From a virus, in the IMG/VR virus record IMGVR_UViG_3300032516_000014, positions 12,396-76,395 of that record: a stretch of DNA of 64,000 bases; one strand, written 5' to 3'. Below the pieces are notes generated by a model. The model made no database searches and was not told the origin of the DNA. It saw only the letters and a program-made list of their open reading frames with translations. Shown piece after piece: positions 1 to 61,975 of this stretch. Positions within the stretch are counted from its first letter, which is position 1. Every line of letters begins with the position of its first letter. A program made the translations under genes and the position numbers.

Positions 1-9
1 ATCAGAAAG

Positions 10-124
10 TGGTGCCGCGAGCGGGAGTCGAACCCGCAGGACTGTTTGACTTGTCAGCTCGTTCACTGAGTCTATCCCGGAAGTGAACCTTCCAGAAAAT
101 CAAAGAGCCCGCGCCGGCCGCAGC
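10..124 (-). ncRNA. tRNA-like structured RNA (acceptor stem, T-arm and CCA; no D-arm; extended arm in place of the anticodon arm)
   Basis: Minus strand reads GCTGCGG...T GCGGG TTCGACT CCCGC TCGCGGC A CCA. The 7-bp acceptor has two G.U pairs, the T-loop is canonical, there is a 13/14-bp internal helix, and a sigma70 promoter lies just upstream. Confidence 0.65.
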
Positions 125-142
125 ATTCAAAGAACTGCGGAC

Positions 143-171
143 AAGCTACACCTGCACGCGGAAATTGTCAA
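143..171 (-). promoter_or_regulatory. sigma70-type promoter for the tRNA-like RNA
   Basis: TTGACA (171-166), 17 nt, TAGCTT (148-143). Predicted start near 136, about 12 nt before the acceptor stem. Confidence 0.7.
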
Positions 172-5300: not shown

Positions 5301-8300
5301 TCTCCGTATTCCCGCCAGGCGGCGCGATGCAAGCGTCGAGCGTATGTAGTCAGTAACTTGTCTTCGGACTCCTTGCGCTTGGCCATGAACGCACCTTCGG
5401 CCTTGCCGGTGGGTTCATCAACAATTTTCCATCCGAGACGATTAAGAGCGCTCTCGAAAACATCAGTCCCGACAGGAAGTGTTCCGCGGGGAACGCCGGG
5501 TAGAGGCTCCCACACAGTCACAACTCTTGTCAGAGCTCCAGTAGCAGGAGAATACCGGGGCTTGCCAACCGATGCCCGCACAAGTTGGTTGTCGGGACCC
5601 TGCAACAAAACGCTCACGTCTCCGGGTGTCGATTTCGGTATGTTCTTAAAAGACCAGCCGGATTTGTTTCTCCAAGCAGAGCGTTCCATTACTTCTGCTC
5701 CCGTTTCTTTTTGCCCGGGGATGTCCTCGGGTAAAATAGGCAGATCAGCCATTCCAGCGACTCGACTTTTCGTCATGAACGCACCTTCGGCCTTGCCGGG
5801 CGTCTTGTCAAGTTGCTGCGAGGCCCAGTCGTAGATCTCGCGCGCGAAATTCTCGTGGATCGCCGGGTCGGTGTGGAACGACTTCGCGAGCACGTTCTCA
5901 TCCACGTCGGCGGCAGAGGTCGTCTTCAACTCCTTCGACAACTCGCTGCCCTCATACACGGCCAGGTTGTAGATGTTCGCGTGGCTGATCACGTCTGAAT
6001 TCTTCCGGAGGAAGTCCATCGTGTGCGCATAGGTCGCCGCGGTCTCCCCCGGCAACCCGATCACGATGTTCGGAATGAACGCGATGCCCAGCCGGCGCAT
6101 CTGCTCGGTGGCGGCGTCGATCAACTTCTCGTTCGCCGGTTTGCGCTGACCTTTCAGCACGCTGTCGTTGTAGGACTCGACGCCCAGCTCGATGAACTTG
6201 ATGCCGCTCTTGCGCAGGAATTCGTCGCTGAAGGACTTCATTTGCGCCGCCGTCGTCTGAATCACGAAGCCCCCGAAGTCGGGATTCGCAGCCTTCATCT
6301 TGGCATAGAGCTCGGGCAGTCGCAAGTAACTGTCGTGATGGCCGAAGGTTTTGTCGTTGAGATAAGCCAGCGGCGCATTCAGATCGCCGAAGGCGTCCAC
6401 TTGCTGAGTCACTACCTCGGGCGGCGTCCCAACGACCTTTTTCGTGGTCGTGCAGAACTTGCACGCGTGCCGGCACCCCTGCGAGAGATCCAGCCGAGGA
6501 ACAACGGAAGAACCCCGATACAAGCGGTAGTCAAAGCCGCGTTTGTATTCCAGCCCAAGAGATCGAACGTATTCATCGATGGATTCATACCGGGTTGCGC
6601 GAGGGTTGCGCGAGGTGATCTCGCTGGTGTCCGTGTAGCCGCCCAGGACCGTGTGGCCTGGATTTGCGTCCGCGAGCTCCGCGACCTTCGACTTGTTCAC
6701 GTCGAGCACCGAGAAGGCCACGTCCTGGTAGCCCGCTGTGGCGAGAAAGCTCTTGGCTTCCGCCATGTCGCGCACCACGTAGAGATCCGCCGCCTCGCCA
6801 AGCGCGTGTGTCAACACTGCGTGCCACTGCGGGACTTCCCAGAAGTCGGGCAGTCGAGCATACCCCTTGCGCTGCGCATACAGCTTGTCGTAATATGCGG
6901 ATGCAGCAACATCCAAGGGATTTGGAGGTTTGTTCACGTCGGTTGGGGCATACATCATGTCCTTCGTGAACTGCATCAGCAACACCCGGTTGGAGTTGTC
7001 CGACGCTCCCGACTGGCGAACCCATAGGTTGCCCTTGCCCCGCTCGACCGCGTGCCCATACGTATCCGCAGGCTCCGTAATCTCGCTGCCGCGCGCCTTG
7101 GGCATGAACGCCGCCGGGGTGAGGCCGGCGGATTCCCCCGGAAGAGCGGGCCGGTCGGGGTTTGTCTCAGAGCTTCCGACCATGCCATCAGGAATGTCGA
7201 TCGGTCGCTGCGGAGTCGGCCCGAGTGGTTCAGTTGTCGCAGGGGCATCTTCTACCGTCCAACCCTTCTTGTTTAGCGAGGGCTCGTATGTGGTGCTACG
7301 CGCGGTGAAAGCACCGGGGAAAGATTCCTTGGGTGTGATCTGTCGCACCATACCCAGGCCCAGCACGGAGGCATCCTGGTCCCCGTCGTGCGTGGCTGCG
7401 ACTCGTTCCCCGTTCGGCCCCACCAGGGTTACGTCACGCTTCGGCATGAAGCCGGCGCGAGCCAGGTCCGTCGAAGGCATGCGCAGCAAAGACTCAGGCC
7501 GCGGCGTGAGACCGCGGATCTGCTCCAGACTGAGCTCTTGCGTGACTTCGTGCAACTGCCCTTTCGCGTCGAAGCCGGCGTCCACCAGCTCCGCCCGCAG
7601 GGGGTTGGTCTCCATGACCGGCACGTCTTCCGGGACGATGATGCCCTTCTTGGCAAGAGCTTCCTTCTTGAAGACCGGCGCGCCTTTCGCGGGGGTAAGC
7701 GGGCGCCCATGCGCCTCTGCAAGTATCTGTGCCGCCATTCCCGCGGGCATCGGCATACCCGAAGGTCCGGTTCGCTGGGCAACTCGGCCAGTTTTCGGCG
7801 GAGCGAGGCCCATCGAGGCGTTGATGAATTGCGCTTTCCGCGGATCAAGAAGGGTCGGCTTCCAGTTTGGATCTGGCGCCGGGATTACCCCTTGCCAGCC
7901 TGCGGGTGGGTGCATCGCCGTGCCGTCGCCGCCGTAGCCGTGAGCGTGATTGCGCAGGTAAGAGGTTACATCAGCCGCAAAGTCCCTAAATCCAGGCTCC
8001 GTGAAATGCCCGTCCGACCCTGTTTCATACGGCACAAGACCTGGTGCCTTCTTGCGAGCGGAAAACTCTCCAATCCGTAGCGCATTCGCGAGCAGGATGT
8101 CGAGGTTCATCGACAGCAGGTTTACGTTGTCTCCGCGAACCTTAACGCCATAGAATATCGCTTGATGTCGGAGCGTCCGCAAGAGTTCAACCGGATAGGT
8201 CCCGTCCGCCTTGCGCTGCAATTCGACTTCAAGACGCTCCGCCCTGCGGATGTATCTTGCCACGTTTTCACCAACCGTTTCGGGCCGGGCATAGTCGAGC

Positions 8301-12167: not shown

Positions 12168-13133
12168 TTACTGTCCTGGATTGCTGAATTGCGACTTGTA
12201 ATAAGTCAGGTCCGAATTGCTTAGGTTTGGCGTCCCTCCCGAGCCACCGCCGCCCATCCCGCCTATCGCGTTCCCCAGGAAATTCGTCGCTGCTCCGATT
12301 TCCTTGCCCGTGGTTTCGGCGTTCATGAGTTTGTTGCCCGCCGCGGCGTTTGCAAGATCCATCATCTGCTGATTCTTCATCTGAATCTGCTTCAGATGCA
12401 AGTTGACCACGTCGCCGCCGGCCAACCCGATGCCCGGCATCGCGGTTTCTCCGAGCCTAGAGGCCAGCCCTGCCCGGTCAGCCCGCGCATTCTGAACCTG
12501 CACGAGGGATGAAGTCAGATTGCCGAGAATCTGCGCTCGGGCGGAGTCCATGTTCGTCACCAGGCCCAGCTCGCTCTGCGCTGTCGCCTGGCGCTGCTGC
12601 TTCAAAGCTTCGCCCTGCACGCCGATCAATTCCCGCATGCGCACTCCGACCGGTCCCTCTGCCGTCGGCCGAACACCACTGCCCGTCGAAAGTCCCGCGC
12701 GCACAAGCTCCGCCTCGTATTCCGGGGACAACGTCGCGCCCAGGTCCAGGTTCTCCTTGGCCTTGTCCAGCAACAAGTCCCGAACTGCATTGCGCTTTGT
12801 ATCCGCCGGCACGTTCTCCTTGACCATCTGCGCCAGCACCGAGTCTTCTTGATTCTTGTGCAGGTCGTCCTGCAAGATGTCTGCCAAAGCACTGGCGCCC
12901 GTCTCCCGGAGCTGGGCCAGCAACGGATCGTATTTCTTCTGCGCCGCAATGCTCCCTTTGAAGCGATCGAGGTCCGCCTGTTTCGCTTCTGCTTTTGCCG
13001 TGCCGGTGTCAAGAGAGGTCTGTTTCTCGACCGATTGCTTGATGATCTTGTAGGCCTTGTTTTGGGCATGCCTGTTCATCTCGGACGACACTATCGTCCC
13101 CACCATGCCGATCATACTTCCTGCCATGCTCAT
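12168..13133 (-). CDS. putative DNA ejection/pilot protein
   Basis: Gly/Ala-rich hydrophobic N- and C-terminal segments around a Q/A coiled coil; follows the GNAT as in many podoviruses. Confidence 0.6.
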   Translation of the reverse strand: MSMAGSMIGMVGTIVSSEMNRHAQNKAYKIIKQSVEKQTSLDTGTAKAEAKQADLDRFKGSIAAQKKYDPLLAQLRETGASALADILQDDLHKNQEDSVLAQMVKENVPADTKRNAVRDLLLDKAKENLDLGATLSPEYEAELVRAGLSTGSGVRPTAEGPVGVRMRELIGVQGEALKQQRQATAQSELGLVTNMDSARAQILGNLTSSLVQVQNARADRAGLASRLGETAMPGIGLAGGDVVNLHLKQIQMKNQQMMDLANAAAGNKLMNAETTGKEIGAATNFLGNAIGGMGGGGSGGTPNLSNSDLTYYKSQFSNPGQ

Positions 13134-60267: not shown

Positions 60268-60663
60268 ATGAACACGAACGTAATCATACCGAACCGGTTT
60301 CAAGGGCAAGTCAAACCTAGCCGTCCGAGGCTTGTCCCCGCCCGCGTGCCGCAGCAATTCAAGCAGTGGAATCGCTGGGACGACGCTCCGCTCGCGAAGT
60401 TGAGGCAAGAGCAGCGCCGGGCCAGCCGGCTGCTGAGCTACCTGCCGAAGAAGATCGAGCGTGCGCGCAAGCTGGAGTTGTCGCATTTGGCCGCGGATCT
60501 CGAATCGCGCCTCGCGAGAGCGAAGATCAACTACGAGGTTCTGACCAACAAGATCGATCTGCGCACGGGCGCGCCGGTCGTGGCGCCGGAGAAGTTCCTT
60601 GGCCGGGGCGCCCGCGAGCGGCTGGCGGCGGCGAAGTTACTGAAAGACAAGGAGGCTGCATGA
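60268..60663 (+). CDS. basic coiled-coil hypothetical protein
   Basis: 131-aa ORF, coupled to the next gene. Confidence 0.65.
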   Translation: MNTNVIIPNRFQGQVKPSRPRLVPARVPQQFKQWNRWDDAPLAKLRQEQRRASRLLSYLPKKIERARKLELSHLAADLESRLARAKINYEVLTNKIDLRTGAPVVAPEKFLGRGARERLAAAKLLKDKEAA

Positions 60664-61571
60664 GCGAAGACAAGATTCCCTACGTCACGAAGACCCCTCC
60701 CCGAACCTCTGAAGAGACTCGGCTCAAAGATCCGGTTACGGGGGCCGAGAAGGGCAGCAAGGAAGCACGCTTCGACTTGATTCCCGCCGGCCCGCTGTTC
60801 ACCCTGGCGCGCGTATTTGGCCGCGGGGCCAAGAAGTATGCAGAGCGCAATTGGGAGCGCGGCTACCCCTGGAGCTGGTCGTTTGCGGCGCTTATGCGGC
60901 ACGCCTGGGCGTTCTGGCGGGGCGAGGAGCTCGACCAGGAAAGCGGCCTTCCGCACCTGGCGCACGCGGCCTGGCATTGCTTCGTGTTGCAGGAATTCAC
61001 GAACTGCTACCCGGACAAGGATGATCGCAGCAAGATGCGCAGAGACGAGGTTGCGTCGCCGGCTACTTCTCTCAACAAGGGGAAGCAAGCCTGGACGGTT
61101 GATGATTGGCGCGCCTCGATGCAGGAGGTCGCGAAGGAAAAGGGGATCACGGGACTGGGAGGACGGCTCTGCTCCAGGACCGATGAATCGGAATTACAAC
61201 GGCGGTTCGACAACTTGCAAAACGTGATCGCTGGGATAACTGAACAGCGGTCGGTGATAAAGGCTGAGCTTGCGCAAGCTCGTGAAAAGCAGAGCCGGTT
61301 GGAAAACAATATCCTCTGTCTGGAAACCACCAACGCGAGCCTAATGAACGAATCCGCCAAGCTGCGTGAGTCCCTCGCAAGTTCACAGTGTGAAGCCGCC
61401 AGGCTGGTAAAGACGGTAGAACACTGGAAGGCGTGCTTGACTTCTGCGCGGTCTGCGTTATCGACGGCGGAAGCTGAAGTCGCCGAGTTGCGCGATCACC
61501 TCTCGCCGAAACCGCAGGCTTGCTTCGTGGTCGCCTCGCCGAAACCGCAGGCTTTTTGGAGGACACTATGA
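60660..61571 (+). CDS. dATP/dGTP diphosphohydrolase-like (DUF5664) domain with C-terminal coiled coil
   Basis: GAKKYAERNWERG...ALMRH...DQESGLPHLAHAAW; AAGGAGG SD. Confidence 0.8.
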   Translation: MSEDKIPYVTKTPPRTSEETRLKDPVTGAEKGSKEARFDLIPAGPLFTLARVFGRGAKKYAERNWERGYPWSWSFAALMRHAWAFWRGEELDQESGLPHLAHAAWHCFVLQEFTNCYPDKDDRSKMRRDEVASPATSLNKGKQAWTVDDWRASMQEVAKEKGITGLGGRLCSRTDESELQRRFDNLQNVIAGITEQRSVIKAELAQAREKQSRLENNILCLETTNASLMNESAKLRESLASSQCEAARLVKTVEHWKACLTSARSALSTAEAEVAELRDHLSPKPQACFVVASPKPQAFWRTL

Positions 61572-61975
61572 GCGCACGTAAACTCAGCACCGGGGGGACC
61601 GAAAATGCGTATCGCGGACGCCGCATTATCTACATCGCCGGACCTTTTAGGGGACCGAGCAACTGGGCCATTGTGCAGAATATCCGGCGCGCCGAGCGGC
61701 TGGCGTTGGAGGTCTGGGCAATGGGACACGTTGCGCTTTGCCCACATTTGAACACCCGGAATTTCCAGGACGCGCTGCCCGATTGGGTTTGGCTGCTTGG
61801 CGACCTGTCTCTCGTGATCCGATGCGACGGCGTGTTGCTAGCGCACAACTGGGAGAAGTCGAAGGGTTCTGTCGGTGAAATGAAGCATGCGATGCTGCAC
61901 GGAATCCCGGTCTTTCGGAGCTTGTCCGAATTGCGCCGGTCGTTCGGGTCGCAGCAGATGCCAGTCGTTGAATGA
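61568..61975 (+). CDS. nucleoside 2-deoxyribosyltransferase-like (DUF4406-type) protein
   Basis: IYIAGPF...CDGVLL..NWEKSKGSVGE...GIPVF. Confidence 0.8.
   Translation: MSARKLSTGGTENAYRGRRIIYIAGPFRGPSNWAIVQNIRRAERLALEVWAMGHVALCPHLNTRNFQDALPDWVWLLGDLSLVIRCDGVLLAHNWEKSKGSVGEMKHAMLHGIPVFRSLSELRRSFGSQQMPVVE

Follow-up and report, generated by a model that had tools for sequence, protein, structure and literature searches.

Bacteriophages carry transfer RNAs (tRNAs), transfer-messenger RNAs (tmRNAs) and a few tRNA mimics, and the defenses of their hosts often attack tRNAs. The C4 RNAs of phages P1 and P7 and the CI RNA of P4 are small, regulatory, and matured by RNase P, and their loops pair with defined targets in the same phage. 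The 'tmRNA' of mycobacteriophage DS6A is no more than a tRNA-like domain (Hudson, Lau and Williams 2014, PMC4131195). Both chargeable and non-chargeable molecules restricted to this domain inhibit tmRNA, an effect that may be due to titration of SmpB (PMC4131195). The RNA ends of YrlA come together in the helix that binds Ro, and a loop caps its acceptor-like stem (Chen et al. 2014, PMC4201824). Described here is a candidate gene for a tRNA-shaped RNA of 115 nucleotides (nt) in a 64,000-nt stretch of viral DNA, hereafter referred to as the window, which corresponds to bases 12396-76395 of the IMG/VR record IMGVR_UViG_3300032516_000014. That record is complete, with a length of 76,395 base pairs (bp), 127-bp direct terminal repeats, and a G+C content of 58.8%. 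The locus had been singled out in an earlier note, the claims of which are considered below where they bear on the results.

The best explanation of the locus, given a probability of about 0.42, is that it represents a genuine gene, confined to one lineage, for an RNA of tRNA origin that does not decode, undergoes tRNA-like maturation, and serves as a mimic or decoy. On the basis of its sequence, the outer half of the molecule is taken to be the acceptor stem, T arm, discriminator A73, and CCA of a leucine-type tRNA. In the predicted fold, a linker of seven nucleotides, a 13-bp helix, and a small pseudoknot stand in for the D and anticodon arms, and an RNA so modeled cannot read codons.

The coordinates of the features are listed in Table 1. 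Position p of the RNA equals 125 minus the window coordinate, and all of its elements lie on the minus strand. The 7-bp acceptor stem, GCUGCGG/UCGCGGC, is formed by five Watson-Crick pairs together with U3.G70 and G7.U66. The other hallmarks of a tRNA are also present, namely a 5-bp T stem with a UUCRANY loop and a discriminator followed by CCA. The earlier note had described the acceptor stem, the ACCA end, the canonical T arm, and the seven nucleotides replacing the D arm, and all of these are found on the minus strand. The helix that it gave as 13/14 bp contains 13 pairs and one C/C mismatch, but U28 had been counted twice, once in the long helix and once in hairpin 1. Both of its hairpins are likewise present, but the second amounts to only 3 bp (CUC/GAG), and the minimum free energy (MFE) fold prefers a 5-bp pairing of nt 56-60 with nt 67-71. 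By analogy with the tRNA-like domain of tmRNA, we infer that the GG of the linker may contact the T loop.

Table 1 Features of the RNA candidate, its flanks, and the phage genes referred to in the text. Coordinates refer to the window unless given as genome; nt, position in the RNA.
Feature	Position	Strand	Remarks
tRNA-shaped RNA candidate, 115 nt	10-124	-	G1 at 124, final A of CCA at 10; MFE fold tRNA-like
Acceptor 5' strand GCUGCGG (nt 1-7)	118-124	-	pairs with 14-20 (nt 105-111)
Stemless linker CCGGCGC, 7 nt (nt 8-14)	111-117	-	contains GG; occupies the place of the D arm
Long helix, 5' strand (nt 15-28)	97-110	-	13 pairs with 39-52 plus one C/C mismatch
Long helix, 3' strand (nt 73-86)	39-52	-	partner of nt 15-28
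Hairpin 1, 9 bp (nt 28-36 with 42-50)	75-97	-	serves as pseudoknot stem S1 in the form 28-35/43-50, with loop nt 36-42
GUGAAC (nt 59-64)	61-66	-	pairs with loop GUUCAC, nt 37-42; pseudoknot stem S2
Segment UAGACUCAGUGAACGAGC (nt 51-68)	57-74	-	holds hairpin 2 of the earlier note; D-arm likeness (UAG-CUCAGU...GAGC), by eye
T arm GCGGG-UUCGACU-CCCGC (nt 88-104)	21-37	-	textbook form
Acceptor 3' strand UCGCGGC, discriminator A73, genome-encoded CCA	10-20	-	read from the sequence
-35-like TTGACA	166-171	-	overlaps TGA stop (170-168) of the upstream WcbI-like gene
-10-like TAGCTT	143-148	-	3/6 consensus bases; 17-nt spacer; rejected by consensus scanner
5' leader, ~12 nt	125-136	-	inferred from the -10 position; RNase P would remove it
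3' trailer, start	1-9	-	terminator hairpin just beyond the window edge
WcbI-like gene, 332 residues	168-1166	-	upstream of the RNA and co-oriented; weak WcbI match; lineage-specific cargo
Cargo slot in this phage	genome 11764-13879 (window about -630 to 1484)		holds the RNA and the WcbI-like gene
PDE, calcineurin-like phosphoesterase, 343 residues	genome 10732-11763	+	weak Pfam matches; adjoins the cargo slot
Sigma-70 region 4 protein, 212 residues	genome 8986-9624	+	PF04545, E 1.3e-7
dATP/dGTP diphosphohydrolase N-terminal domain protein	60366-61571	+	PF18909, E 1.7e-33
DUF4406/DUF7768 protein	61520-61975	+	next gene; domain match

The MFE structure predicted for the 115-mer is the tRNA-like fold itself, with an energy of -47.6 kcal/mol and a z score of -2.56; two of 200 shuffled sequences folded as well. 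For the precursor inferred to extend from the transcription start to the terminator, the MFE structure retains the tRNA-like fold together with the terminator hairpin (z score -2.91), and 0 of 200 shuffles were as good. By these measures the predicted RNA structure exceeds chance, and this is one reason for favoring a functional tRNA mimic.

The loop sequence GUUCAC (nt 37-42) can form six Watson-Crick pairs with GUGAAC (nt 59-64), for which shuffling gives a P of about 0.012-0.03. In the earlier note these segments had been described as possible kissing loops. The complementarity is real, but an H-type pseudoknot, or alternatively two competing helices, fits it better because hairpin 2 is only 3 bp long. 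In the pseudoknot model, stem S1 is formed by nt 28-35 and 43-50, loop L1 by nt 36, stem S2 by nt 37-42 and 59-64, and loop L3 by nt 51-58. Treated as nested alternatives, S1 and S2 are near-equal in energy (-40.9 versus -39.2 kcal/mol for the whole RNA). Note that the sole substitution in the sister contigs, G36 to U, sits on the one-nucleotide loop L1. Its placement is compatible with the pseudoknot, albeit as a single data point. The six pairs and the position of this substitution also speak for the favored explanation.

The T arm, the acceptor 3' strand, and A73 together make up 25 nt, for which exact matches exist in 12 bacterial stretches. The nine of these 12 to which ARAGORN was applied all carry short (74-76 nt) 'tRNA-Leu' genes with the anticodons CAG, CAA, or GAG. 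The matching genes are located inside tRNA gene arrays of Myxococcus, Corallococcus, Pyxidicoccus, Dactylosporangium, and Actinoplanes. Their acceptor 5' strand reads GCCGCGG versus GCUGCGG in the phage RNA, and thus U3.G70 can be explained by one transition. The CCA is encoded in the phage RNA and not in the matching array tRNAs. That 25 nt are identical to real tRNA genes, that all seven acceptor pairs are completed by a 5' strand located 97 nt upstream, and that the CCA is encoded here argue for a tRNA-derived gene. Comparison of the inner 80 nt with the bodies of the array tRNAs gave no significant similarity. When the 200-nt region was compared by BLASTN with 50,697 phage records, only the T arms of phage tRNAs were matched, those in cultured phages being mostly T arms of tRNA-Leu. 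A local alignment of nt 51-68 (UAGACUCAGU...GAGC) with the textbook D-arm consensus is marginal (P about 0.03-0.06), and the D-arm likeness is considered a lead, not a finding.

The arrays themselves merit comment. Bacterial tRNA-Leu is normally a class II molecule with a long arm. The arrays in the Myxococcaceae and Micromonosporaceae hold Leu-anticodon tRNAs of 74-76 nt with a short variable loop, all of which have one 25-nt T-arm/acceptor sequence in common across two phyla.

The candidate gene is flanked by putative transcription signals. The promoter claimed in the earlier note, TTGACA-17-TAGCTT, is present but weaker than stated, its -10 element matching three of six consensus bases and failing the consensus scanner. 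It is the sole TTGACA-N16-18-TANNNT site in the 64 kb, where 0.3 would be expected, and it is positioned ~18 nt upstream of the RNA on the correct strand. The promoter is a plausible, unproven candidate. Because the -10 element is weak and the -35 element runs into the stop codon of the upstream neighbor, the RNA could equally well be transcribed jointly with this neighbor and then processed. An intrinsic terminator, which was absent from the earlier note, is found ~25 nt past the CCA (genome 12343-12382). It is composed of ~10 G+C-rich pairs with an 8-nt loop, followed by UUGCGUUUUU, and can also serve the convergent plus-strand gene. The sole promoter-like site directly upstream and the terminator close downstream are further reasons for favoring a dedicated RNA gene. 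The phage encodes a sigma-70 region 4 protein, and its own promoter type may serve part of transcription.

Two additional pairings are available to the precursor. Nucleotides 8-19 of the RNA (CCGGCGCGGGCU, window 106-117) are a perfect 12-nt complement of the 5' arm of its own terminator (genome 12372-12383) and are nearly identical to the 3' arm. In the leader, CCGCAG can pair with acceptor nt 2-7, as judged by eye. Both pairings could represent alternative precursor folds, or they may be a coincidence of G+C-rich sequence.

The RNA was compared with known classes. With its default settings, ARAGORN called 0 tRNA or tmRNA genes, whether it was applied to the window or to the whole genome, and no Rfam family matched the RNA at gathering scores. 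When E values up to 10 were admitted, Rfam gave only chance-level matches and the T arm, the best match from the tRNA clan being tRNA-Sec (16 bits, E 1.9). The tmRNA covariance match at this threshold was confined to the 17-nt T arm (13.8 bits), 16 of whose 17 positions conform to the tmRNA consensus. A canonical tRNA was rejected on the basis of these negative searches and of the seven nucleotides in place of the D arm. A tmRNA was rejected as well: the RNA has U3.G70, not G3.U70, the conserved D-loop/linker sequence is absent, and no model matches beyond the T arm. The U3.G70 pair is retained in all sister contigs. As to a tag reading frame, ARAGORN calls no tmRNA, and the only in-frame stop after the pseudoknot gives, by eye, a frame of two codons. 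A YrlA or Y RNA was rejected given that there is no Rfam match and no TROVE gene in the phage, and that the ends form an acceptor stem and not a Ro helix. Tail-anchored searches of the phage for SmpB, Ro/TROVE proteins, and integrases were negative, and in the complete genome with its direct terminal repeats no protein matched PF00589 or PF00239.

The central proposal of the earlier note, a candidate for a stand-alone, non-decoding, tRNA-shaped RNA with an encoded CCA, is supported by the ARAGORN and Rfam runs that it had called for, neither of which recognizes a tRNA or tmRNA. Its statement that the RNA is no tmRNA holds as well, both for U3.G70 and for the missing tag open reading frame (ORF). 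Its more specific suggestions fared less well. A decoy for anticodon nucleases is unlikely because the RNA offers no anticodon loop, and a role in binding SmpB or Ro finds no support in a phage lacking genes for SmpB or Ro/TROVE and in an RNA devoid of the tmRNA sequence hallmarks. Together with the kissing loops, these are the parts of its interpretation that found no support. The Rnl2-like RNA ligase that it reported in the phage is borne out by matches to PF09414 (E 2.4e-12) and phrog_548 (E 6.7e-27).

The distribution of the locus is narrow. The protein encoded by the WcbI-like gene has homologues in two protein clusters only, among 5.8 billion; a 54% identical homologue, P0002, is encoded on a 2.5-kb contig. 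Contigs found through this neighboring protein in IMG/VR and JGI metagenomes are 98-99% identical in DNA across the region. Scanning IMG/VR for the RNA with exact or degenerate patterns returned the sister contig only, in addition to unrelated tRNAs and tRNA look-alikes. Homologues of PDE, the phosphoesterase adjoining the locus, number at least 727 at 50-77% identity, many on contigs of 60-78 kb and hundreds on contigs of ~70 kb. By means of these homologues, 79 related IMG/VR loci were gathered. Two covariance models, R1 for the whole RNA and R2 for the inner 80 nt, were run over the 79 loci, 50 whole related phage records, and four bacterial genomes, and only ordinary tRNAs were recovered. 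Within the data searched, the RNA is an orphan of one phage lineage.

The surroundings of the gene vary from phage to phage. The gene order in the group of ~70-kb phages is conserved as p731, orf216, and PDE, followed by the convergent orf243 and a giant protein. The gap between PDE and orf243 measures between 18 nt and 2.1 kb, and its small ORFs differ among the phages. The RNA and the WcbI-like gene are cargo in this variable gap between conserved convergent genes, and such a location is another reason for favoring a functional element. Precedent provides the last, in that phage RNAs consisting of a tRNA-like domain alone have been published (PMC4131195).

Several observations weigh against this explanation. 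The structure is a prediction, and the RNA is a candidate known from sequence alone; the tmRNA-like arrangement, with a D-loop lacking a stem, a long helix resembling P2, and a pseudoknot beside it, is likewise seen in the predicted fold only. The statistic for the pseudoknot is post hoc. The -10 element is weak and the -35 element overlaps a stop codon. The only copies are 98-99% identical and thus provide neither covariation nor a sign of purifying selection. Indeed, the one difference in the 115 nt of the RNA equals the local background, such that conservation of the RNA does not exceed that of its flanks. Among the 50 related phage records, which include 23 with a completeness of at least 90%, none contains the RNA, and no partner protein has been found for it. 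What is presented is a well-formed candidate, not a demonstrated RNA.

Some of these points also fit the main rival, a non-functional relic in which a tRNA gene was rearranged or partly duplicated within a fast-changing cargo region. Restriction to one lineage with absence from 50 relatives, the lack of excess conservation over the flanks, and the weak promoter all suit a relic. An internal rearrangement is also hinted at because nt 51-68 resemble a displaced D arm and because nt 44-50 match, by eye, five of the seven bases of the expected old acceptor strand. A relic, however, would be unlikely to gain a new, fully pairing 5' acceptor strand, a 13-bp helix that spans exactly from acceptor to T arm, an encoded CCA, a promoter-like site, and a terminator. 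Its inner 80 nt also lack significant similarity to the matching tRNA bodies. We regard the relic as unlikely, though it is the most serious competitor. The molecule could instead be an analogue of the tag-less phage mini-tmRNAs, that is, a mimic of the tRNA-like domain that binds SmpB and, uncharged, blocks trans-translation in the host. Here the GG-containing stemless linker, the long helix with a pseudoknot directly after its 5' strand, as in the P2-PK1 arrangement of tmRNA, and the agreement of the T arm with the tmRNA consensus are all suggestive, and a published precedent exists in the DS6A RNA, which comprises a tRNA-like domain and nothing else and is of the kind that inhibits tmRNA (PMC4131195). 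Set against this are U3.G70 in place of G3.U70, the absence of the typical D-loop/linker sequences, the confinement of the Rfam tmRNA match to the T arm, an acceptor and T arm of the tRNA-Leu type, and a phage that encodes no SmpB. Such an analogue is judged improbable.

A regulatory or processing element is likewise improbable. It would be either an antisense RNA matured by RNase P, in the manner of P1 C4 and P4 CI, or a tRNA-like cleavage signal in the 3' untranslated region of the WcbI-like mRNA. The RNA does directly follow the stop codon of a co-oriented gene, and the pairing of the leader CCGCAG with the acceptor, as well as the 12-nt complementarity to the terminator arm, would permit alternative precursor folds. 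The MFE structure of the precursor nevertheless keeps the tRNA-like fold and the terminator, the phage genome contains no other complementary site of at least 12 nt, and chance alone would produce about one 12-nt match across the genome. Rfam, which holds a C4 family, gives no match. An intron-containing tRNA is far less probable still. In its intron mode, ARAGORN returns a tRNA-Cys(ACA) with a 43-nt intron and with exactly the ends of the RNA. The intron, however, would be placed at 27/28 and not at the canonical 37/38, no normal cloverleaf results, the D stem has two of three pairs, the ACA anticodon is unusual, and the 13-bp helix, which is far stronger, would be lost; neither default ARAGORN nor Rfam accepts the RNA as a tRNA. 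To our knowledge, 43 nt is far below the size of self-splicing introns, and bacteria have no splicing endonuclease. The intron model was rejected for its non-canonical site, its defective D stem, and the loss of the 13-bp helix, and the ordinary or intron-containing tRNA that the earlier note had named as a way in which its proposal might fail is not what was found. Another such possibility was an attP core, namely a host tRNA 3' end kept for integration. The identity of the 3' 25 nt with bacterial tRNA genes is what such a core would show, but no tyrosine or serine recombinase is found in the complete genome, the matching 5' acceptor strand is there together with an encoded CCA, and the matching tRNAs are from high-G+C bacteria as compared with 58.8% for the phage. 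An attP remnant was rejected on account of the missing integrase and the presence of the 5' acceptor strand and CCA, and it is the least probable of the alternatives.

If the RNA is a tRNA-derived mimic, its production might be envisioned as follows. Transcription would begin at its own sigma-70-like promoter, or the RNA would be excised from the upstream mRNA, and the transcript would end at the intrinsic terminator. RNase P would trim the 5' end at G1, and 3' exonucleases would trim back to the encoded CCA, thereby yielding a stable RNA of 115 nt. Host proteins that grip the acceptor/T-arm minihelix and the CCA end would take the molecule for a tRNA, and the ribosome could not decode with it. 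Its likeliest job would be that of a mimic or decoy occupying such a factor during infection, with a defense enzyme that targets tRNA ends, SmpB, EF-Tu, or a tRNA-processing enzyme as candidate targets. On the predicted structure, acceptor-end enzymes, SmpB, or EF-Tu are more plausible than an anticodon nuclease. The narrower proposition, that a stable, CCA-ended mimic lacking a D arm, armed with a pseudoknot, and built from the top half of a leucine-type tRNA serves as a decoy in anti-defense or translation control, is speculative and we consider it doubtful. Were it true, a new structural class, transported as mobile cargo, would be added to the known phage tRNA mimics. The RNA might, for example, sequester a host enzyme by which the 3' ends or acceptor stems of tRNAs are attacked or modified, or it might block ribosome rescue. 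With only the enzyme-gripped part of a tRNA retained, and with a location in a swappable slot, such an RNA would be a candidate tool for RNA-based counter-defense or translation control. Furthermore, the pairing in this molecule of a tRNA-Leu-type acceptor and T arm with a tmRNA-like architecture devoid of the alanine identity pair would test which features such mimics need.

With respect to the remainder of the phage, the early-type genes, including those for a helicase, a family A DNA polymerase, the sigma-70 region 4 protein, and PDE, a metallophosphoesterase, are on the plus strand and converge on a long minus-strand structural block that includes a protein of 2808 residues. The RNA candidate is sited where the two blocks meet. 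Pfam or PHROGs scans of ~35 phage proteins revealed no RNA-handling gene other than the RNA ligase. PDE and the ligase might constitute an RNA-repair pair. The protein with the PF18909 domain and its DUF4406/DUF7768 neighbor, which presumably belongs to a nucleoside deoxyribosyltransferase-like family, hint at modified DNA nucleotides in the phage.

Other tRNA-like elements came to light in IMG/VR. In an unrelated 83-kb phage contig (IMGVR_UViG_3300022562_000333, 6282-6374, minus strand), a 93-nt element lies in a tRNA cluster between two tRNA-Leu genes. Its 5' strand GGGGCUG and 3' strand CAGCUCC-A give G3.U70, its T arm is identical to that of the present RNA, and it has no anticodon arm. 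It is not called by ARAGORN and looks like a tag-less mini-tmRNA of the DS6A kind. Within the PDE-bearing group, IMGVR_UViG_3300046791_000324 (7543-7641, plus strand) contains a 99-nt, class-II-shaped tRNA look-alike ~2.7 kb downstream of PDE, with a GGGAGGG acceptor strand, a GG-bearing D arm, a long extra arm, and a T arm. Its 'anticodon' region is a 7-bp stem with a 5-nt loop, ARAGORN makes no call, and BLAST finds no copy in the other related loci gathered. Finally, a 98-nt element in IMGVR_UViG_3300037755_000581 (12919-13016, minus strand) displays a GCGGCGA/UCGCCGC acceptor stem and a canonical T arm with no cloverleaf. It is likewise not called by ARAGORN, its fold has a z score of only -1.4, and it may be due to chance.

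A comparison with the described systems defines the position of this RNA among them. Like C4 and CI, it would be a small phage RNA with paired ends and a CCA-like 3' end suited to RNase P, but the antisense search led only to its own terminator arm, and it has no Rfam match. Like YrlA, it would be a tRNA mimic incapable of decoding, of a kind that phages may encode, in which a long helix is joined to a T-arm-like module. Unlike in YrlA, however, its own ends would form the acceptor stem with a free CCA, and it is accompanied by neither an Rfam match nor a Ro/TROVE gene. The array tRNA-Leu genes are identical to it over the T arm, acceptor 3' strand, and A73, and differ by one transition in the acceptor 5' strand; they possess normal D and anticodon arms and no CCA, whereas in the phage RNA 80 unrelated nucleotides replace positions 8-48. 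From tmRNA and the DS6A RNA it is distinguished by U3.G70 in place of the alanine identity pair G3.U70, by the lack of a conserved D-loop/linker, and by an acceptor and T arm of the tRNA-Leu type. Like the DS6A RNA, it is phage-encoded and without a tag reading frame. Its closest resemblance in predicted architecture is to the tRNA-like domain of tmRNA, with an acceptor stem, A73-CCA, a T arm, and a GG-containing linker without a D stem. As in tmRNA, a long helix would replace the anticodon stem, and a pseudoknot would follow its 5' strand just as PK1 follows P2.

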